A DNA stretch of 30,456 nucleotides, from the NCBI GenBank assembly GCA_964536035.1, contig CAZHWL010000001.1, positions 1 to 30,456 on the forward strand, given 5' to 3'. The notes below the pieces were generated by a model that saw nothing but the letters and a program-made list of their open reading frames with translations, had not been told where the DNA came from and ran no database searches. Each line of letters starts with the position of its first letter. Within the stretch, counting starts at the first letter, position 1. The stretch comes from an uncultured Candidatus Bathyarchaeia archaeon (GTDB lineage Archaea > Thermoproteota > Bathyarchaeia > Bathyarchaeales > Bathycorpusculaceae). The position numbers were made by a program, and so were the translations under genes. Positions 3,615-30,456 of this stretch are shown here, one piece after another.

Positions 3615-4043
3615 TTAAATGTCTTCGCTATCTCGTTTGCTGAAGTAAGCTATGTCTCTGTTCTCAGTGTAACCGCAGTGTTTGAACAGGTGCTTTGAGA
3701 CCAAGTTATCTTCTTCAATCAACGCGCAGAACAGCTTCAAGCCTCGGTTTCCAAAAATCTTTTCCGCCTCAGCAATCAGAACACGTGCGACCCCGCGCCG
3801 CCTGTACTCAGGATCTACTGCTAAACGGTTGATCCAGCCCTTTCGCAGGTCACAACTGAGAACCGCCATGCCAATCAAGTTGTCATCTTCAAAGGCTCCT
3901 ACAAAAAAATCAGGGTTTGCCGCCATCTCAGCGGCTATTGCCTCTTGACTGTCTCTTCCATGTGGCTTGAAAGGCAGCTTGGCTTTCGTCCACAGACTCG
4001 TTATAGCTTCATAGTCGTCTATCGTAAGTTTTCGAAGTTCCAC
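3615..4043 (-). CDS. GNAT family N-acetyltransferase (YpeA-like)
   Basis: Acetyl-CoA motif LAVDPEYRRRGVA, GWINRL, and a C-terminal N...LF...GY motif. Confidence 0.88.
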   Translation of the reverse strand: MELRKLTIDDYEAITSLWTKAKLPFKPHGRDSQEAIAAEMAANPDFFVGAFEDDNLIGMAVLSCDLRKGWINRLAVDPEYRRRGVARVLIAEAEKIFGNRGLKLFCALIEEDNLVSKHLFKHCGYTENRDIAYFSKRDSEDI

Positions 4044-19842: not shown

Positions 19843-21015
19843 TCACTTGATCTCTTTCACTGCTCTTTCTATTCGGTCCAAAGCTTCTTCCAGCTTTTCA
19901 TAAGCAGATGCGTAGGAAATTCTGATGTATCCTTCACCATATTTGCCGAAAGCTGAGCCTGGAACCGTGACTACATGAGCTTTTTTTATTAGAAATTCTG
20001 AAAACTCTTCTGAGGATTTTCCCAGTTCCCTAATATTTGGGAAAGCATAGAAAGCTCCTTTAGGCAGTGAACAATGGAGACCTCTGATCTCATTAAGTCT
20101 TTTATGGACAAGGTGTCGTCGCCTGTCAAACTCTTTAACCATATCTTTGACAAAGTCTTGTTGCACCTTTAACGCCTTCAGCGCGGTATATTGCGAGATG
20201 CTGTTTACACAAGCCACTGCGTATTGATGTACAAGCCAGAGTGCTGAAATAAGTTCTTTAGGACCGTAGACATATCCGATCCGCAGGCCAGTCATAGCGT
20301 AAGTTTTCGAGAAAGAGGAAACAACTAGTGTGCGTTCACGCATCTCAGGCAATGTTGCCGCGCAATGGTGTTTCAGTCCGTCGTAGATCATTTTCTCATA
20401 CACTTCGTCAGATATCACTATCAAGTCATGTTCAACCGCAACCTTTGCCAAAGCTGCCATGTCACTATGTGACAGAACCCCGCCTGTAGGGTTGTTTGGA
20501 TAATTCAGGATTATCGCGCGTGACTTGTCTGTGATTAGCGATGTCACATCATCCAGTGATACCTTGAAGTCTCTTTCTTCCAAGAGTGGAACAGAAGTAG
20601 GCACACCGCCTGCAAGTCGAACCCCTGGCTCATAGAGTACAAATCCTGGGTTGGGAACGAGAACCTCGTCACCAGGATTTATCAAACCGAAGAGTGCACA
20701 GAAAATTGCCTCGGTTCCACCCACAGTAATCAGTATTTCAGAGCTTGGGTCATACTTCAAGCCGTATTCTTTGAAGGCTTTCTGAGCTAGCGCCTCACGC
20801 AACTCGGGAACACCATTCGTTGGTTCGTAGTGAGTTTTACCTTCTTTTGCTGCTTCACAACCTGCGTTCAGAACTTCTTTCGGTGGGCAAAAATCTGGTT
20901 CCCCGATACTTAAATTGATGGAATCCGGCATTTCGTTAGCCATTGCGAAGAAACGGCGTATTCCAGACGGCTTTATCCATTTTAGTCTTTCTGCTGGTCC
21001 GAATGGTGAATTCAC
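19843..21015 (-). CDS. Class I/II PLP aminotransferase (aspartate aminotransferase-like)
   Basis: LSIGEPDF, NYPNNPTG, SDEVYE, SSFSKTYAMTGLRIG and YIRISYA motifs. Start is GTG 21015 with a GAGGAG RBS, not 21135. Confidence 0.95.
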   Translation of the reverse strand: MNSPFGPAERLKWIKPSGIRRFFAMANEMPDSINLSIGEPDFCPPKEVLNAGCEAAKEGKTHYEPTNGVPELREALAQKAFKEYGLKYDPSSEILITVGGTEAIFCALFGLINPGDEVLVPNPGFVLYEPGVRLAGGVPTSVPLLEERDFKVSLDDVTSLITDKSRAIILNYPNNPTGGVLSHSDMAALAKVAVEHDLIVISDEVYEKMIYDGLKHHCAATLPEMRERTLVVSSFSKTYAMTGLRIGYVYGPKELISALWLVHQYAVACVNSISQYTALKALKVQQDFVKDMVKEFDRRRHLVHKRLNEIRGLHCSLPKGAFYAFPNIRELGKSSEEFSEFLIKKAHVVTVPGSAFGKYGEGYIRISYASAYEKLEEALDRIERAVKEIK

Positions 21016-21160
21016 TTTATTCTCCTCATTAAGCAATGCAGACATTTCAATAAATCGTTTGTGCCTGTACCGCGTGCTTTCTCGCATAAAGGCGACAGTC
21101 TTAAAAGCGGAGCCTGTATACAGAACCGTATCCATTCAGCATAATCCGGGGAGTCAAAGT

Positions 21161-21640
21161 TTGAAGCTAAAAGAAAGCGTTCAGGCATGGTTGCAGGGCT
21201 CAGTTAGTGACCCCATTGTGGCAATACTTGCTAAAAATAGCCATTTAACGCGAACGCAGCTTGAAACACTGCTCATTGACATTTTATCGGAGAATTTCTC
21301 AGGCAAACAGCTAAAATATGATGAAAAAGCCAAATTAAGGCTAACAAAGGCACAAATAAGCCGCGGTGCGTTCAATAGGACATTAAAACAGGCTAAGGAT
21401 AACGTAATAAAATCAATCTATACCGTCTTACTTCTGGGCTATTTGGGAGTATTCGAGGACACAACTCTTGACCCGTACCTTGAGGTGGCAAACAAATTGC
21501 ATACATACGTGGAGGCATACAAAGACATACCAAATAAGAATGCAGAACTGAGTGACCATCTAAAAGTCATAGAAATGATCAGAGAAGAGCTTGAAACGAG
21601 CCTAAAACAGCTTTCCAGTCCATCAGAAGGCATGACGTGA
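21161..21640 (+). CDS. Conserved hypothetical protein with probable HTH (159 aa)
   Basis: LTRTQLETL...KAKLR...ISRGAFNRTLKQA resembles a sigma-region-4/Tfx-type HTH. The 20915 start overlaps the aminotransferase, so TTG 21161 was chosen. Confidence 0.72.
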   Translation: MKLKESVQAWLQGSVSDPIVAILAKNSHLTRTQLETLLIDILSENFSGKQLKYDEKAKLRLTKAQISRGAFNRTLKQAKDNVIKSIYTVLLLGYLGVFEDTTLDPYLEVANKLHTYVEAYKDIPNKNAELSDHLKVIEMIREELETSLKQLSSPSEGMT

Positions 21641-21932
21641 TATCACAAATCACGCAAAAAAAGCGCAAAGTGTGACATGAGAAGAGCACCGTCTGGAAAG
21701 GGGTATAAATCGCTTTTTTATCAAAACAAAGCCAAAAATGAGAAGATTCAAGAAAGAGTCATCATGTGTTGAGTTGGCTTTACTTTCACGGAAACTGTGA
21801 CGTGTGACGTCATAGAACCATGGCCTAATGGAAGAGACCATAAGATTTAAATGAAATATCATGAGATTGTGATGTGTGATGCAACAGTGGCAGTGTCACA
21901 TATAATCACGTCGAAATCACAGGAGTTCGTGA
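21636..21932. repeat. Array of 13 YGTGA/TCACR motifs in both orientations (operator- or centromere-like)
   Basis: Counted by hand at 21636, 21643, 21650, 21671, 21786, 21796, 21803, 21868, 21875, 21896, 21906, 21917 and 21928. Includes tandem heptamers TGTGACG x2 and TGTGATG x2 and palindromes GTGATATCAC and TGACGTCA. Confidence 0.8.
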
Positions 21933-21933
21933 G

Positions 21934-22644
21934 ATGGAGTATCTTCTAGCACTTGTAGGAATTTTGCTTGGAATTACGGCTATTATGGCGGGTGTGTGCT
22001 ACAGATTGCTACGTAAAGCGAAAAGAGATTATGAGAAAGCAAAAGACGCTGTCAAAGACATTGTTCTAAGCTTCAATAGGCAGATTAGAAATGAAGCCGA
22101 GAAGATTGCACTTGTCGCATATAAAATGGAAGCCCTCTCGTCGAAGAGCGATAGTGCTCTAAAAAAAGCAGATGAGGCGGTTAAGGTAGCTCAGACAATG
22201 GAAGCTAAAGTCACTTCAGTGTTGGAAGCAAGAGACAAAATGTTGACGAGACTTGACGAGGTTGACAAAAAAGTGTGTGATGTCACCACGTCACAATCTT
22301 CAATCTCTGCAAAGATCACAAGTTTGGAAAACCAAGCAAGGCAGTTTGCACTTGCTCCTGAACCAAATGTTGAGGCGGTAATCCCCATCAAAAGAGATAA
22401 AGCTCTCGCGCCTCTCACGGAGACAGAGTTATCTGTCCTAGAAATGTTAACCTCTGAAGGACCGAAGACTGCTCCTGAGACCAAAGACAGAGTAAAACTA
22501 AGCAGAGAACATACCGCTCGCCTCATGAAGAAACTCTATGAGGGAGGTTACCTGGAAAGAGAAACAGGAAAAATTCCTTTCAAATATAGCGTCAAGAAGG
22601 AAATGGAGAAACTGCTAAAGAAGGTTGAGGATCAAGCATCATAG
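21934..22644 (+). CDS. Membrane-anchored coiled-coil protein with C-terminal winged helix
   Basis: N-terminal TM (YLLALVGILLGITAIMAGVCY) followed by RLLRKAKR; about 110 aa of heptad-rich helix; LTETELSVLEML...LSREHTARLMKKLYEGGYLER wHTH; GGAG RBS. Confidence 0.85.
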   Translation: MEYLLALVGILLGITAIMAGVCYRLLRKAKRDYEKAKDAVKDIVLSFNRQIRNEAEKIALVAYKMEALSSKSDSALKKADEAVKVAQTMEAKVTSVLEARDKMLTRLDEVDKKVCDVTTSQSSISAKITSLENQARQFALAPEPNVEAVIPIKRDKALAPLTETELSVLEMLTSEGPKTAPETKDRVKLSREHTARLMKKLYEGGYLERETGKIPFKYSVKKEMEKLLKKVEDQAS

Positions 22645-22711
22645 GTTACACTAACGACGGTTTTTTCTGTGTTTTAAGCTCTCTCGATTGCCTTTCCTTA
22701 CTAGAGAGCCG

Positions 22712-23257
22712 CTACGTTTCAGGGACGTCATAATCTGGTCTTCTGCTTCTCTCCAAGTATTCTGGATAATGTGTTACTTTTATGGATACTGCGAACCTTA
22801 TTTTTGGTTCAGATATCAATAATGCTTCGCCCGAGAGAAGAGTTAAAGCTGTCTGGCTTTCCATTTCAATCCTAAAATCTTGCAGGTAACTCCTGTGTAC
22901 ATGTGCATTTCCAACAGCTGTACAGATTCGCTCGCCATAACCCCAATTAACATTGCGTCCTTCTACGATTGCATGTAGAATGCATGAGGTATACTCACCA
23001 GTTGTTTGCCCGCTTAAGCGTCCTTGTCGCGCAGTCAACAGCCAAGAAACTTCCAGAGAAGTAGCCTGTTTTTTTAAAGGTTTTATTAGGGTAACATCTG
23101 CCTTCGTGTTTACTGGTGGCTCTTCTTTGGTCTCAATGGGACCTGCAATTCGGCCATTATTAACATAGGTCTTGAGCTTTCGCTCCAGATCAAAGAAGTC
23201 TCTTTTAACAGTCCGGTCTATCGATCTCCCCTCAGCAGATAGTGGGGTAGTCTCCAA
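22712..23257 (-). CDS. Hypothetical protein (181 aa), no recognisable family
   Basis: An open frame filling the gap between two genes, co-oriented with 23300..23755 (42 bp gap); TTG start. Confidence 0.55.
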   Translation of the reverse strand: METTPLSAEGRSIDRTVKRDFFDLERKLKTYVNNGRIAGPIETKEEPPVNTKADVTLIKPLKKQATSLEVSWLLTARQGRLSGQTTGEYTSCILHAIVEGRNVNWGYGERICTAVGNAHVHRSYLQDFRIEMESQTALTLLSGEALLISEPKIRFAVSIKVTHYPEYLERSRRPDYDVPET

Positions 23258-23299: not shown

Positions 23300-23755
23300 C
23301 TAGTTTTCTGGTAAATCTTTCTGTACGGGCATCGGTTGTTTGAATTGTATTTGCGGGGCCTTTTGAGCCAAATGATACTTCAGACTGTTCGCTGCGCCAG
23401 CCTTAACGAGCATGCCTTTCAAGGCCATCCGTGAGAGATATGTAGCCGCCGTGCTTAATCCTATGGGTTCCCTGAGCTCCTGCTCATACGCTGATTGTAA
23501 GTCCTTTGAAGAAAACCAAATAAGTTGGAAGTTTCTCTGAACAACCATACGAACCTTTTCACATTTAGACAGCTTCGGATCTACAATTGTTTGTTTTTGC
23601 TCAGTGTTGATGTTTTCGTTTGGCACTCCACCTAGAAGTTCTACTAGATCTAAGAGCCGGACAGCCTTGTCTCTAGTTATCTGGCCTTCGAAGGCTATTG
23701 TGTATCGATTGCCTTCGCTGTCGAATAGCTCTACACGCATTTTTCTTGCAGGCAT
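23300..23755 (-). CDS. Hypothetical two-domain protein with C-terminal winged helix, divergent from oriC
   Basis: Small N-terminal beta/alpha domain (MRVELFDSEGNRYTIAFEG...LLDLVELL), a polar linker, then FSSKDLQSAYEQ...IGLSTAATYLSRM..KGMLVK.G wHTH. Confidence 0.8.
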   Translation of the reverse strand: MPARKMRVELFDSEGNRYTIAFEGQITRDKAVRLLDLVELLGGVPNENINTEQKQTIVDPKLSKCEKVRMVVQRNFQLIWFSSKDLQSAYEQELREPIGLSTAATYLSRMALKGMLVKAGAANSLKYHLAQKAPQIQFKQPMPVQKDLPEN

Positions 23756-23954
23756 CTATACTGCCCATCTCTTCAAAGTGTTCACAACTTTACAATTCAC
23801 ATGTTATAGGTGTTGCGGTGAACGCACCATATCTAAAAAAGGCCGTAAAGAAACAGAAAAGGCAAAACGGGCAGATTTTGCAAAGACTTTGTCTAAACTA
23901 ACTTCACTACGGTTTTAGAATTTAAAAAAAAGTAAAACATGTGGCGCCCCGGTG

Positions 23955-24407
23955 TCTCCAGAAGAAATGAAGGGGTGGTTAGTTCACACAGAAGAAGCAT
24001 GAAAAACTCAAGAATTCTCAAAAGGAATTCAAAAACATTCACTAAAAAATCAACTTCACAAAGGCTTCACAAAAAAGTGAACTAAAGTGAATAGCCGCAG
24101 ATCAGCAATCACTAACCGTTTTAAAGCTAAACTACTTTGGTAGCTATTTGGCATTTCAGTTTTATGCTTATCACTAAAAAATTGGTGACAGGTTATGGGC
24201 CACCCCTTCATTTCTATTGGAAAGTGCGGAGTGCACATCACTTCAAAAAAACGCAGTGCAAACTTTTGTTAGTTCATCTAAATTCTTTAACAATCACAAT
24301 TATATCTTGTTTAATGTACTGACCTACTAGAGTATATTTATCAAGAAAGTAAATTAGCATTAATTCTCAACATCAAGAAAGGTTTTCCACTGGAATTATT
24401 GGGGTGG
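23955..24407. other. Probable chromosomal replication origin (oriC): ORB elements and AT-rich unwinding region
   Basis: ORB1 (+) TCCAGAAGAAATGAAGGGGTGG at 23957-23978; ORB2 (-) TCCAATAGAAATGAAGGGGTGG at 24200-24221, 20/22 identical to ORB1 and inverted; ORB3 (+) TCCACTGGAATTATTGGGGTGG at 24386-24407; AT-rich spacer; adjacent to cdc6. Confidence 0.88.
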
Positions 24408-24554
24408 GGCTACCATTGAAATAGATATTTGGGAGGCGCCATTATCCTTCTGTAAGATTGTCAACACGCGAATCGATTTTTTTGTACGGTATGACTTATT
24501 TTCTCCACACGAAGAAGAGGCGTTACCTTTGAAATTAGAGGGAGGAAGACGTGG

Positions 24555-25805
24555 TTGCAAGAAACAAATATCTTAGATGGCGTGTTTGAACGGTTTGTTA
24601 GTGAAGCGAGAGTGTTCAGAGATAGAGAAGTTCTTCGGCATGACTATTTGCCTAACCGATTACCTCATAGGGAGGAGCAAATTAGACAGCTTGGTGAGAC
24701 AGTGGCTCCGGTTTTGAAAGGAGCGCGCAGTTCGAACATTTTTATTTATGGCAAGACTGGCACGGGCAAAACAGCTGTGACAAAGTATGTTTTGAATCAT
24801 CTAGAAATTAAGGCGAAGGAACTCGGCGCGCCAATTAGGTTTTGTTATGTTAACTGCAGAATGGTGGGTTCTGAGTATAGGATCTTTGCAAGCCTATGCC
24901 AGACAATAGGAATCTCTGTCCCATTCACAGGCTTGTCCGTGGGTGAAGTTTTTGAGAGATTCCGCGCTGGCCTGGAGACTTCGCGGATTATTCTGATAAT
25001 AGTCTTGGATGAAGCGGATGCGTTGATAAAGGATCGCGGTGATGGCTTGCTTTATGAGTTGACGAGAATAAATGAGTCTTTACGGAGTAGTAAGGTATCG
25101 CTTATTGGAATCTCTAATGATCTCAGGCTCAAGGAATTTTTGGATCCACGGGTCTTGAGTTCACTTAGTGAGGAAGAAATGGTTTTCAGGCCTTATGATG
25201 CTGCTGAACTGAAACGTATTCTTTCTGAACGTGTAGCTACAGCTTTCTGCAAGGATGCCTTATCTGACTCAGCTCTAAGCTTGTGCTCAGCTTTGGCGGC
25301 GGCAGAACATGGTGACGCGCGGCGTGCGCTGGACTTGTTGCGGGTCGCTGGAGAGGTTGCAGAGCGGGCCAATGCTACTGTCGTGGTTGAGGATCATGTG
25401 CGGGAAGCTGAGAAGCGCATTGAGCACAACCGCGTCTTCGAAGGGCTGAAGAATCTGACTTTGCATTCGAAACTTGTGGTCTTAAGTGTTTATCACCTTA
25501 ACCGTGCAGAGGTTCATCGAGCAATTACTGGAGAGATCTTTGAAGTGTACAGTGAGGTCTGCGGGTTCATAGGGATGACACCATTAACACAACGCAGACT
25601 AGGCTCATTAGTTAACGAGCTTGATTCTATGGGCCTTCTGAACGCAAAAGTCGTGAGCATGGGTAGATATGGTCGAACCAAAAAAATCAGACTGGAAGTC
25701 TCCAGAGGAATAGTTAAAGATGTTTTTGGCACCGACGATAGGCTTGGGCGCTTAATCGAGTACGAACCAAAATGTCTAAAGAAAGGTGCAGATCGCGGCA
25801 AATAA
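24555..25805 (+). CDS. cdc6: Orc1/Cdc6 replication initiator
   Basis: LPHREEQI, Walker A GKTGTGKT, YVNC, Walker B VLDEAD, GDARRALDLL, and a C-terminal wH (GRYGRTK); GGAGG RBS. Confidence 0.97.
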   Translation: MQETNILDGVFERFVSEARVFRDREVLRHDYLPNRLPHREEQIRQLGETVAPVLKGARSSNIFIYGKTGTGKTAVTKYVLNHLEIKAKELGAPIRFCYVNCRMVGSEYRIFASLCQTIGISVPFTGLSVGEVFERFRAGLETSRIILIIVLDEADALIKDRGDGLLYELTRINESLRSSKVSLIGISNDLRLKEFLDPRVLSSLSEEEMVFRPYDAAELKRILSERVATAFCKDALSDSALSLCSALAAAEHGDARRALDLLRVAGEVAERANATVVVEDHVREAEKRIEHNRVFEGLKNLTLHSKLVVLSVYHLNRAEVHRAITGEIFEVYSEVCGFIGMTPLTQRRLGSLVNELDSMGLLNAKVVSMGRYGRTKKIRLEVSRGIVKDVFGTDDRLGRLIEYEPKCLKKGADRGK

Positions 25806-28076: not shown

Positions 28077-29060
28077 TTGAACACTGTCCGTAAGATTCAA
28101 AGTACGCCCAGTGGGACGGTTTTTGTTTGCCTGCCTAAGGCTTGGGCTGAGCAGTACTCTGTGAATAAGGGCTCTTTTGTGGCTATAAGTGAAACTGAAG
28201 GGGGCAAACTTGTTATTGACCCAAGACACGATGTTGAGCCATTGCCGCACTCGATAACACTGACTCCTGGGCCATATCTGAATCGTGAGATCATAGGCAC
28301 ATACTTGTTGGGCTTCGACATAATTCGGGTTGAACCGAAAACGCGCATCAGTTTCGAAGTTAGGGACACTGTTAAGAGTGCAGTTAATCGTTTGATTGGG
28401 TTGGAGATTGTTGAGGAAGACAACTCCAAGATCGTTCTGCAGTGTTTGTTAGAGCCGTCAAGCTTTCCGCCTGAGAAAATTCTGCGCCGAGGCTACTCTA
28501 TAGCCGCTGGTATGCATCGCGATGTTACTAACGCCTTTTTGGATGGAGACGTACAGTTGGCTCGAAATGTTGTGGCTCGTGATGATGAAGGAAACAGGCT
28601 CTACTTTCTTCTAGTTCGTATTCTGCGAACGATTGTACAGAACCCCGGTCTGAGTGAGAAGTTGGGCGCGACTCCTATTGAATGCCTTGACTATCGTCTG
28701 GTTGCAAGTTTGGTTGAGGCAATTGGTGATGAGGGAGTGCGCATAGCACGAAAGGTAATTGAACTGAAAGGTGTGAAATTGGCTGAGGAGTTGCGGAAAC
28801 AGTTTGTCGATTTTCACTTGGCCTGTTTCGAGACCCACGAAGGTGCTTTGAACGCGTTCCTGACGAGCAATGTGGAGTTAGCTGAAGGGGTCAGGGCAAA
28901 GCATGAGAAAATGGAAAAGACGTTCACTAATATTGAAAAAATTGCAAGGGAGCAGTCGCTTGATGTTGTTCCGCAGATCCTTGCAGTTGCCTCTTTCCTG
29001 AGACAGATCTATGAGCATAGCGTAGATATTGCAGATTTGGTAATTCCAAAAAAAGACTGA
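28077..29060 (+). CDS. phoU: AbrB-PhoU fusion phosphate uptake regulator
   Basis: N-terminal AbrB-like GTVFVCLPKAWA segment, LIGLEIVEE, then PhoU repeats (RDDEGNRLYFLLVR, EAIGDEG, IYEHSVDIADL). Confidence 0.9.
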   Translation: MNTVRKIQSTPSGTVFVCLPKAWAEQYSVNKGSFVAISETEGGKLVIDPRHDVEPLPHSITLTPGPYLNREIIGTYLLGFDIIRVEPKTRISFEVRDTVKSAVNRLIGLEIVEEDNSKIVLQCLLEPSSFPPEKILRRGYSIAAGMHRDVTNAFLDGDVQLARNVVARDDEGNRLYFLLVRILRTIVQNPGLSEKLGATPIECLDYRLVASLVEAIGDEGVRIARKVIELKGVKLAEELRKQFVDFHLACFETHEGALNAFLTSNVELAEGVRAKHEKMEKTFTNIEKIAREQSLDVVPQILAVASFLRQIYEHSVDIADLVIPKKD

Positions 29061-29068
29061 CGACGTTC

Positions 29069-30289
29069 CTAAAAGGGGAGCTTGTCAACCTTCACTGGTG
29101 CCTTTGCCATTGAGACATTGGCATCTGCTCTCAATTCATGAGTGTACTGAATTTCACCCGCTATGTTGCAATCAGATTCTATTGTAATCTCCTCTCCATA
29201 GACGTTCGCTACAGATGCCCCTCTTCTCAGAAGTATCCTTTTTCCAAACACGTTTTCTGCCTGAGCATCTTTCCCGATTAATACTTCATCTGCTCTCAGA
29301 TCGCCGCGAACCTCGCCTCTTCTTCCTATTTCAACAAAAACTGCAGTAAGGCCTTGAACTGTTCTTATTGAGCCACCAACTTCAACACGGTTTGAAGCTG
29401 CAACCTTTTGAGCCTCTAACACTCCCCCTATTTCGATATCTTCGGCTGAAAGTTCCTTTCCGATTTCAGCTTTTCCTCCGACTTCCAAATCCCCGGAAAG
29501 TTTAAGCGAACCCTCAATCTCCACTTTTCCTCCAACCTCTATTTCTCTGCCTTCAGCTGATTCCGAGATTTTCACTTTGCCACCTACATCGATTTTCCCG
29601 AACTTCAAGTTTCCTTTGACTTCCAAAACTCCTCCTATATCCACATCTCCGCCTTTACAGTTGCCAGCCAATCGAACTATTCCTCCCACTTCTATCTCTT
29701 CGAACTCGAGCGAACCGTTGGATTCAAAGCTGCCTCCGACGTCTATGTTTCTGATTTTTCCGCCATGTACTCTGGCTGTTCCGCCAACATCTAGGTGTTC
29801 TATTACGACGTTTAATTCAGCTGAGAAGCTGCCGCCAATGTCGACGTCTTCCGCTTCAACTTCTCCTTTTGCTCTGAAGCTGCCTCCGACGTCTATGCTT
29901 CTGGCTTTGGTTTTTTCGACGACTTCGAGGCGCCCTCCCACTTCAACGGTTTCTGCTGTCAACCACTTTCCTACGTACAAAGCCTCGTCCACATCTACTT
30001 GTTTTGCTGACAGAGACCCTTGCACCTCTAGCCGGCCGTCTTCAGCCCTTACTTCATCGTGGATGTTCAAATTGCCATTTATTCTGACGTCTCTTTCTGT
30101 CTGTAATCGCTCTGCTGATAGGTCACACTCGAAAGTGTTATGCCCTCTGCAATGTACCGTGCCTGAGACTTTGACTGTTGATGGCGACCCCGTTCCCTTG
30201 ATGACTGTATGTTCTTCCACTATGAGATCTCCGTTCACTGAGTCCAGTGTCACGGTGCTTCTGGACGGAATTGTTGTTCTGTTGTTCAT
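29069..30289 (-). CDS. Long bactofilin-like (polymer-forming cytoskeletal) beta-helix protein
   Basis: Twelve x[DE][VI]GG repeats at about 17-aa spacing plus V/I-G-rich beta-solenoid ends; start at ATG 30289 after a GAGGAAGG RBS. Confidence 0.85.
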   Translation of the reverse strand: MNNRTTIPSRSTVTLDSVNGDLIVEEHTVIKGTGSPSTVKVSGTVHCRGHNTFECDLSAERLQTERDVRINGNLNIHDEVRAEDGRLEVQGSLSAKQVDVDEALYVGKWLTAETVEVGGRLEVVEKTKARSIDVGGSFRAKGEVEAEDVDIGGSFSAELNVVIEHLDVGGTARVHGGKIRNIDVGGSFESNGSLEFEEIEVGGIVRLAGNCKGGDVDIGGVLEVKGNLKFGKIDVGGKVKISESAEGREIEVGGKVEIEGSLKLSGDLEVGGKAEIGKELSAEDIEIGGVLEAQKVAASNRVEVGGSIRTVQGLTAVFVEIGRRGEVRGDLRADEVLIGKDAQAENVFGKRILLRRGASVANVYGEEITIESDCNIAGEIQYTHELRADANVSMAKAPVKVDKLPF

Positions 30290-30456
30290 TTGCCCTTCCT
30301 CGTTACACATTTATTGTTGACTGTTTAAAAGGAATACTCACGTCTGGTGACTATCTGCAGCGCAAGAGTTCTTTCAGCTATTGCTATGTTCCCTACTGCT
30401 CTTGTTTTTCCACGCCAATTCTCTTCATGTTTTATTTGATGTTCCATTCTTACCAC

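Follow-up and report, generated by a model that had tools for sequence, protein, structure and literature searches.

RacA and its ram sites form an origin-to-membrane anchor in the bacterium Bacillus subtilis. The parS site of plasmid pSM19035 consists of 7–10 contiguous heptads, needs at least four of them, and works with a ribbon-helix-helix (RHH) ParB protein and ParA (PMC9499535). Archaeal regulators bound over the transcription start site, downstream of the BRE (B recognition element) and TATA box, block polymerase recruitment, and those bound at upstream sites can activate; TrmBL1/Tgr regulate in this manner on TATCAC-N5-GTGATA, and Lrs14 controls its own gene likewise (PMC4158304). Here we describe an array of short GTGAY words from an uncultured Candidatus Bathyarchaeia archaeon of the family Bathycorpusculaceae, located at 21636–21932 of the 30,456-nt stretch that was analysed (hereafter the window; assembly GCA_964536035.1, contig CAZHWL010000001.1, positions 1 to 30,456, forward strand). 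The array lies in the 293-bp spacer separating two plus-strand genes, designated P2 (21161–21640) and P1 (21934–22644). Its sites are real, genome-unique and under purifying selection, with a geometry fixed around a promoter-like block, and are co-inherited with P1 and P2; we lean towards the view that they are operator sites at which P1 represses its own promoter with the help of auxiliary clusters. A literature search found no paper on this array/P1/P2 locus. The source assembly is a metagenome-assembled genome (MAG), 86% complete and 1.155 Mb in 179 contigs, with the window on its contig C1; the nearest homologues of the encoded proteins bear Bathyarchaeia names.

The first-pass annotation, made from the sequence alone, had counted 13 copies of YGTGA/TCACR in these 297 bp, with about 1 expected. 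All coordinates proved correct: copies lie on the plus strand at 21636, 21671, 21796, 21803, 21868, 21875 and 21928, and on the minus strand at 21643, 21650, 21786, 21896, 21906 and 21917. The background is 132 copies in the window (1.29 per 297 bp) and 4323 in the whole assembly (1.11 per 297 bp), i.e. 1.1–1.3 expected, and the Poisson probability of at least 13 copies is 2e-10 to 1e-9. First-order Markov simulations (300 x 30 kb) reached a maximum of 8 copies per 297 bp. In a base-by-base sliding scan of all 179 contigs, no second 297-bp stretch with at least 8 copies was found; the density peaks only at the array, and the word is not equally frequent elsewhere. The tandem pairs, the palindrome, the trio phased at 10 and 11 bp and the TATA element at about 21845 were likewise verified. 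A regulon search in this genome, using the tandem-pair, palindrome and phased patterns, returned only a handful of other matches. The sole other strong look-alike, GTGACGTCACAGTCACA on contig C8 (10110–10126), lies within a divergent promoter region shared by a PadR-family regulator and a 1479-aa multi-PAS/GAF histidine kinase. A palindrome in nadE (18437) was rejected as a site, being present in only about 8 of the 21 genera and going along with a Cys-Asp-Ile-Thr variant of the coding sequence.

When spacers of Bathycorpusculaceae genera were aligned with MAFFT, near-invariant islands stood within a drifting background, with a column identity of 0.93 in the motifs versus 0.57 in the remaining spacer. 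Retention was scored in 18 other genera: nine of the 13 copies are kept in 17–18 of them and the copy at 21896 in 9, and those at 21671, 21786 and 21928, kept in none, look lineage-specific or due to chance. The orthologous spacers thus keep their sites and drift in between. Sites a, b and d, as named below, also keep their distances across genera, mostly 155–164 bp from a to b and 67–76 bp from b to d, and the end of the TATA box precedes the start of site d by 14–17 bp in 19 genera. Helical phasing of the a–b distance was considered and rejected: the lengths cluster at about 160 bp, with outliers that do not fall at multiples of 10.5 bp. The spacer has a weak AA/TT periodicity.

Three copies of an 18-bp composite, TGTGAYNTGTGAYRTCAY, made of two heptads and an inverted heptad, become apparent when sites a, b and d are each read on the appropriate strand. 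Site a (21636–21654, minus strand) overlaps the P2 stop codon, includes the palindrome GTGATATCAC (21637–21646), and has the form GTGAyGTCACAAATCAC across genera, its three copies being kept in 17–18 of 18. The variable spacer between a and b (21655–21795), A-rich on the plus strand, is conserved in length (mostly 140–147 bp) but not in sequence, and contains two of the lineage-specific copies, 21671 and 21786. Site b (21796–21813, plus strand) is a perfect 18-bp composite, TGTGACGTGTGACGTCAT, which includes TGTGACG twice (21796–21809) and appears across genera as TGTGATGTGTGACGTCAT. It ends 23 bp upstream of a conserved BRE/TATA block, ACCATAAnnTTTAAAT (21837–21852, plus strand), which is present in 26 genera, has ATTTAAAT at 21845–21852 with the TATA box at 21846–21852, and presumably acts as the P1 promoter. 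Site d (21868–21885, plus strand; TGTGATGTGTGATGCAAC across genera) consists of TGTGATG TGTGATG (21868–21881) and a degenerate third unit, GCAAC. Site e (21895–21921, minus strand), in the predicted 5' leader, has three RTCACR words spaced by 10 and 11 bp; across genera it comprises two or three ATCAC words 10–11 bp apart, and in 6 of 26 genera a clean gap of 10 bp stands in place of the first. A Shine-Dalgarno-like GGAG and then the P1 start follow. The longest contiguous run is three heptad units (sites a, b and d), and the clusters are 50–160 bp apart. Since the usual TATA-to-start distance in archaea is about 26 bp, the P1 transcript is predicted to start near 21875, inside site d.

P1 (236 aa, plus strand) is predicted to have an N-terminal transmembrane (TM) helix at residues 3–23, preceded by two residues and followed by RLLRKAKR. 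In the structural model, residues 2–139 form one helix (the TM segment and a stalk of about 115 residues), followed by a flexible linker modelled at low confidence, a C-terminal winged helix-turn-helix (wHTH) domain with its wing, and a last helix. The wHTH matches Pfam TrmB, MarR and HTH_27, the TrmB score (25.6 bits) being exactly at the cut-off; matches to NCBIfam Lrs14 and Sta1 are below their cut-offs, and those in the PDB are of the MarR type and include the Sulfolobus regulator 2d1h. By its family and PDB matches and modelled secondary structure, the domain is of the MarR/Lrs14 type, and the model suggests that P1 joins DNA binding and membrane attachment in one protein. Among 41 orthologues from across the class, the predicted recognition helix, SREHTARLMKKLY, is invariant to at least 90%, whereas the stalk drifts; Nitrosopumilus has the nearly identical SREHTSRLMKKLF, inside a domain with only 38% overall identity.

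We propose that the array consists of sites for protein binding, all made from a single short word with the core GTGAY, here mostly as heptads TGTGAYR. P1 would be a membrane-anchored dimeric stalk bearing two wHTH heads on flexible linkers, each head reading a single GTGAY word. Such single-word reading would explain the direct, inverted, 7-bp and 10/11-bp arrangements together, and the flexible linker between stalk and head might account for the tolerance of words in either orientation and at various spacings. When occupied, site d over the start and site e in the leader would keep RNA polymerase off the BRE/TATA block, and P1 would thereby limit its own synthesis; sites a and b, together with two clusters in coding DNA described below (cluster U and the site within P1), may be auxiliary, raising local occupancy by cooperative binding or looping. 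P1 is favoured as the reader because i) among the neighbours it alone has a recognised DNA-binding domain, ii) the invariance of its recognition helix parallels that of the DNA word, Nitrosopumilus included, and iii) over the same distance, the candidate helix of P2 shows little conservation. Given that the predicted start falls within site d, that site e is in the leader and that site b lies upstream, autoregulation via a multi-site operator is the best-supported reading. It agrees with the operator role that the first-pass annotation had considered for the tandem pairs flanking the TATA box, as the conserved BRE/TATA does precede the second pair by that narrow interval. The same annotation had taken the array for a platform to which a neighbouring HTH protein binds cooperatively; conserved words in non-conserved spacers and an array that travels with its flanking genes fit this idea, and P1 is its probable binder.

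Several points weigh against autoregulation by P1. A regulator that is membrane-fixed, lacks a sensor and has strong sites at its own locus only would be unusual as a pure transcription factor, and clusters 1.1 kb upstream and in coding sequence exceed the needs of simple autoregulation. P1 heads bound 7 bp apart may clash sterically. P2 and a 151-aa protein encoded near the origin are likewise conserved, possibly DNA-binding and always linked, and either could be the reader. Four metatranscriptome RNA runs searched with 20400–23000 were uninformative, giving no usable transcript ends for a start site or a small RNA. One 4-kb RNA contig spans the whole region but may be DNA or derive from a relative; two of the runs contain pieces of P2 (one also pieces of P1) and no intergenic piece.

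The composite was also searched for in other genomes, allowing at most one mismatch and using the reversed pattern as control. It was found in 55 of 61 sampled genomes of the family (35 of the 36 high-quality ones) against one control match, nearly all matches lying within 1.3 kb of P2 and almost always at this locus only. Class-wide, 56 of 151 genomes contain it, against 6 control matches. Nitrosopumilus genomes have the order PolD-cdc6-oriC-151-aa gene-P1-array-P2-PcrB, and their strongest GTGA/TCAC peak lies between P1 and P2 (7–12 per 300 bp versus about 1.1 expected). Sixteen Nitrosopumilus loci share a layout in which GTGAT stands in tandem at the P2 stop, a tandem pair precedes a TATA-like block, and TCACgataaaTCAC precedes the P1 start. 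Their words are spaced by 9, 10 and 12 bp rather than 7, and it is therefore the word GTGAY and not the heptad that is conserved as a unit. In its 3' third, the Nitrosopumilus P2 gene carries 4–6 GTGAT words, each encoding Val-Ile or Ser-Asp-Ile; there, the array thus extends into coding sequence. In another family within the phylum, a short version of P1 (TM helix, short linker and wHTH) almost adjoins P2, and GTGAY/TCAC words occur upstream of the P2 gene, within it and immediately behind the TM segment of P1, which suggests that the words follow the gene pair and not one promoter.

Over 21 genera, the density of the word peaks at the spacer, 900–1300 bp upstream of the P2 stop and 600–700 bp downstream. 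The upstream peak includes cluster U (20513–20559), located inside the coding sequence of an aminotransferase, where its position, about 1100 bp upstream of the P2 stop, is conserved. Its form in relatives is TCACryGTGAy-N7-GTGAyaaGTGAyrTCACa; here it is partly eroded, with GTGA at 20520 and TGTGATTAGCGATGTCAC at 20530–20547, within the coding sequence ...DDVTSLITDKSR... of the aminotransferase. This gene has been lost in six genera, of which five keep cluster U in non-coding DNA with frame-breaking spacing and one keeps part of it; in these genera a short gene remnant is left only around cluster U, just downstream of the nitrilase stop. The retention of cluster U after loss of the gene indicates that it is selected as DNA. 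A test of synonymous sites in the aminotransferase, where several codons at U never vary against a gene mean of 0.44 in a gappy alignment, is suggestive, retention after gene loss being the stronger argument. The downstream peak corresponds to a second coding cluster, within P1 (22276–22295; TGTGATGTCAC..TCACA, in relatives GTGAY-N10-TCACA). The residue before its Asp varies (R/C/G/S) with the codon always NGT, and its Ser codon is always TCA; this pattern points to a constraint at the DNA level.

The locus adjoins the replication origin. Downstream of P1 are two small minus-strand open reading frames (ORFs), an oriC-like spacer, orc1/cdc6 (24555–25805) and the PolD small subunit, and in the window the PolD large subunit is encoded on the upstream side of the array locus. 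The second of the small ORFs encodes the 151-aa protein (23300–23755, minus strand) and adjoins oriC. A canonical oriC with three origin recognition boxes (ORBs; TCCAGTAGAA...GGGGTG), one of them inverted, occupies 23756–24554 between this gene and orc1/cdc6; all three ORBs are in that interval and none is in the array. The origin has its own conserved short word, TTCACA/GTGAA, adjoining and between the ORBs; as its flanking base differs from that of the array word RTCACA, its reader may differ too and could be, for example, the 151-aa protein. The order PcrB-NadE-nitrilase-(aminotransferase)-P2-array-P1-(variable insert)-151-aa gene-oriC-cdc6-PolD was found in all 20 genera of the family examined, and the P2-spacer-P1 arrangement, with a similar spacer length, in 20 genera of the family besides that of the window. 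Examples fetched from other Bathyarchaeia orders again have P2, a peak of the word, P1, the 151-aa gene and cdc6; the peak reaches 6–17 copies per 300 bp (at least 12 in 10 of 20 loci) and lies mostly in or beside the P2-P1 spacer. The array is 1.8–2.9 kb from oriC here and 1.2 to 4 kb across genera, the distance being shifted by insertions. The slot between P1 and the 151-aa gene varies in content; here it holds a 181-aa ORF (22712–23257) of no known family and weak conservation, and in several genera an insert of 2–3 kb.

Such linkage bears on a reading that we regard as tentative and less probable than autoregulation, in which array and P1 fix the origin-adjacent chromosome to the cytoplasmic membrane and aid the positioning or segregation of the origin. 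Many P1 dimers would hold some 15–20 words over about 1.8 kb, and promoter repression would come as a side effect, as is the case for ParB, omega and KorB. Only two residues precede the TM helix of P1, leaving no room for an outside sensor, and the long stalk with flexible heads suits an anchor. The array is unique in the genome, candidate binding sites are confined to the origin-proximal region, and the clusters reach into coding DNA and span P2. The linkage of P2, array, P1, 151-aa gene, oriC and cdc6 holds in all 20 genera examined in the family and extends to other Bathyarchaeia orders and to Nitrosopumilus, and RocS and RicO provide bacterial precedents for linking origin DNA to the membrane (10.1101/359943; 10.64898/2026.03.06.710092). 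A sensor-less anchor, a unique array, its spread into coding DNA and a very old linkage to oriC together exceed what plain autoregulation needs. However, no partition ATPase was found among the ORFs scanned in the 30-kb window, the strictest conservation is in the geometry around the promoter, which a pure anchor does not need, and the distance to oriC varies through insertions. Tethering and autoregulation are compatible and not mutually exclusive.

A different protein might also read the words. That P2 or the 151-aa protein does so, P1 being the regulated target, seems unlikely to us, although both have features in its favour. P2 (159 aa, plus strand, TTG start), an all-alpha protein outside the Pfam and NCBIfam families, is single-copy in 86 of 94 high-quality Bathyarchaeia genomes and bracketed by clusters U and a, and shorter relatives occur in several other families of the phylum, including all 28 genomes of a family identified as Nitrosopumilaceae. 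Its probable promoter has a likely TATA box, GTATACAGAA (21117–21126, plus strand), about 35 nt upstream of the TTG. This box is part of a block, GTATACAAAAnnGTATCCAT (21117–21137), which overlaps the minus-strand start codon of the aminotransferase; as the block is conserved even where the aminotransferase is gone, it probably serves P2. The P2 model is confident (predicted local distance difference test, pLDDT, 89) and all-alpha. Foldseek gave no significant match in the PDB (best E 1.3), a PDB profile search found nothing, and the AlphaFold DB clusters contained uncharacterised relatives only. A wide VIA structure search returned generic helical hairpins and one weak match to a LuxR-type DNA-binding domain (residues 26–100, Z 6.2); this segment of the model may contain an HTH like those of LuxR or sigma region 4. 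P2 also has an invariant polar helix start (SRGAFNRTLxQA). The 151-aa protein, for its part, keeps LSxxSTYLSR from Bathyarchaeia to Nitrosopumilus. Nevertheless, the candidate helix of P2 diverges strongly between classes (overall identity 25%) while the DNA word is unchanged, no DNA-binding protein matches the P2 fold significantly, and the 151-aa gene faces oriC, where the conserved word is the different TTCACA/GTGAA.

It is highly improbable that the words act as RNA, with TGTGAU and AUCACA pairing in the P1 leader to control translation or stability. RNAalifold does pair site d with site e in 26 genera, but the covariation term is -0.36, a double change occurs in 1 of 13 pairs, and the paired words are simply invariant. 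The same words stand at places where no such pairing is possible, namely upstream of the TATA box, at the stop of P2, within P1 and, in antisense, in the aminotransferase; moreover, the predicted transcription start cuts site d, and no Rfam match was obtained. The least credible explanation, a chance or compositional clustering or a part of the origin itself (ORB or iteron-like), is suggested by the shortness of the word and the proximity of oriC but founders on a probability of about 1e-9, the genome-unique cluster and its positional conservation, which already refutes chance, and on a canonical oriC that is separate, with three ORBs and TTCACA, not RTCACA, as its recurrent word.

Other observations concern the window and the assemblies. 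A 413-aa protein (29069–30310) has a bactofilin-like segment and a weak FapA-like match; its neighbour (28077–29060) is a PhoU-domain protein with a MazE/AbrB-like N-terminus. Over at least 300 bp inside a 530-aa ORF, contigs C41 (~3680–3990) and C115 (~2456–2766) are identical, which reflects either assembly redundancy or two strains in the bin. One MAG of the same family (95% complete) has three separate copies of the array locus, on its contigs C4, C29 and C51, which points to mixed strains in that bin.

Bathyarchaeia are abundant in sediments. To our knowledge, gene regulation and chromosome handling in this group are almost unexplored, as is the way in which any archaeon positions its origin. 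The locus provides a cis-element defined precisely in word, composite, spacing and promoter context, together with a short list of three candidate readers, and its conservation reaches Nitrosopumilus, a genus with cultured members. Even as a mere autoregulatory operator, it would leave to be explained why a membrane-fixed, sensor-less transcription factor of one locus has been kept over so great a distance. The tether, if true, would be the first system described that links an archaeal origin region to the membrane, and would be older than the split between Bathyarchaeia and the ammonia-oxidising Nitrososphaeria.

The first-pass annotation had likened the array to the centromere-like site of the omega/pSM19035 system. 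The likeness lies in the word and the mixed orientations: both have 7-bp units with an ATCAC core (here ATCAC/GTCAC), direct and inverted copies, overlap with promoters, and several clusters around the genes of the system. It does not extend to contiguous run length, an RHH reader or ParA, and a centromere-like site of this type is not supported, as runs here have at most three heptads where at least four are needed and neither an RHH protein nor ParA is nearby. No RHH Pfam match was found in the window, the neighbours being an all-alpha and a wHTH protein, and no ParA/MinD family match among 26 of its ORFs of at least 100 aa, which include all the long non-overlapping ones. The consensus WATCACW is exact in 2 of the 10 conserved copies, the others differing at one or both flanking letters. 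The omega site, moreover, is plasmid-borne and served by a small RHH dimer and ParA, whereas the present locus is chromosomal and conserved across classes.

At Sulfolobales origins, UBP and its ucm motif (PMC12141716) resemble the present case in having a short conserved non-ORB word associated with the origin and a small dedicated reader. However, ucm lies inside the origin, and UBP is a nucleoid protein with hundreds of sites that contacts DNA through beta-hairpins, whereas the array is outside oriC and genome-unique; among P1, P2 and the 151-aa protein, none matches UBP in sequence. RocS of Streptococcus pneumoniae and RicO of Staphylococcus aureus combine a DNA-binding head with membrane attachment and act on origin-proximal DNA, as P1 may do. 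Neither these proteins nor RacA is related to P1 in sequence, and they use many or non-specific sites. RocS is attached through a C-terminal amphipathic membrane-targeting sequence, in contrast to the predicted N-terminal TM helix and stalk of P1.

The TrmB/TGM (Thermococcales glycolytic motif) system of Thermococcales (PMC4158304) shares with the array the half-site hexamer ATCAC/GTGAT and a wHTH reader, here the candidate P1, which is at the Pfam TrmB cut-off. Its sites are inverted repeats with an N5 spacer and are spread over a regulon, whereas the array has abutting GTGAYRTCAC palindromes, 7-bp tandems and 10/11-bp phased repeats, with strong sites at a single locus and no TATCAC-N5-GTGATA inverted repeat. 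The TrmB regulator has an N-terminal wHTH, a coiled coil and a C-terminal effector domain; P1 departs from this family domain order, with a C-terminal wHTH after the TM helix and stalk and no effector or sugar-binding domain. The placement of the sites is nevertheless that of the TrmB type, over the start or upstream of BRE/TATA, with site d following the TATA box closely, site b upstream and the start itself predicted. As in TrmB/TGM regulation and the autoregulation of Lrs14, one set of sites lies over the predicted start, one lies upstream, and the gene of the putative regulator stands beside its own sites.

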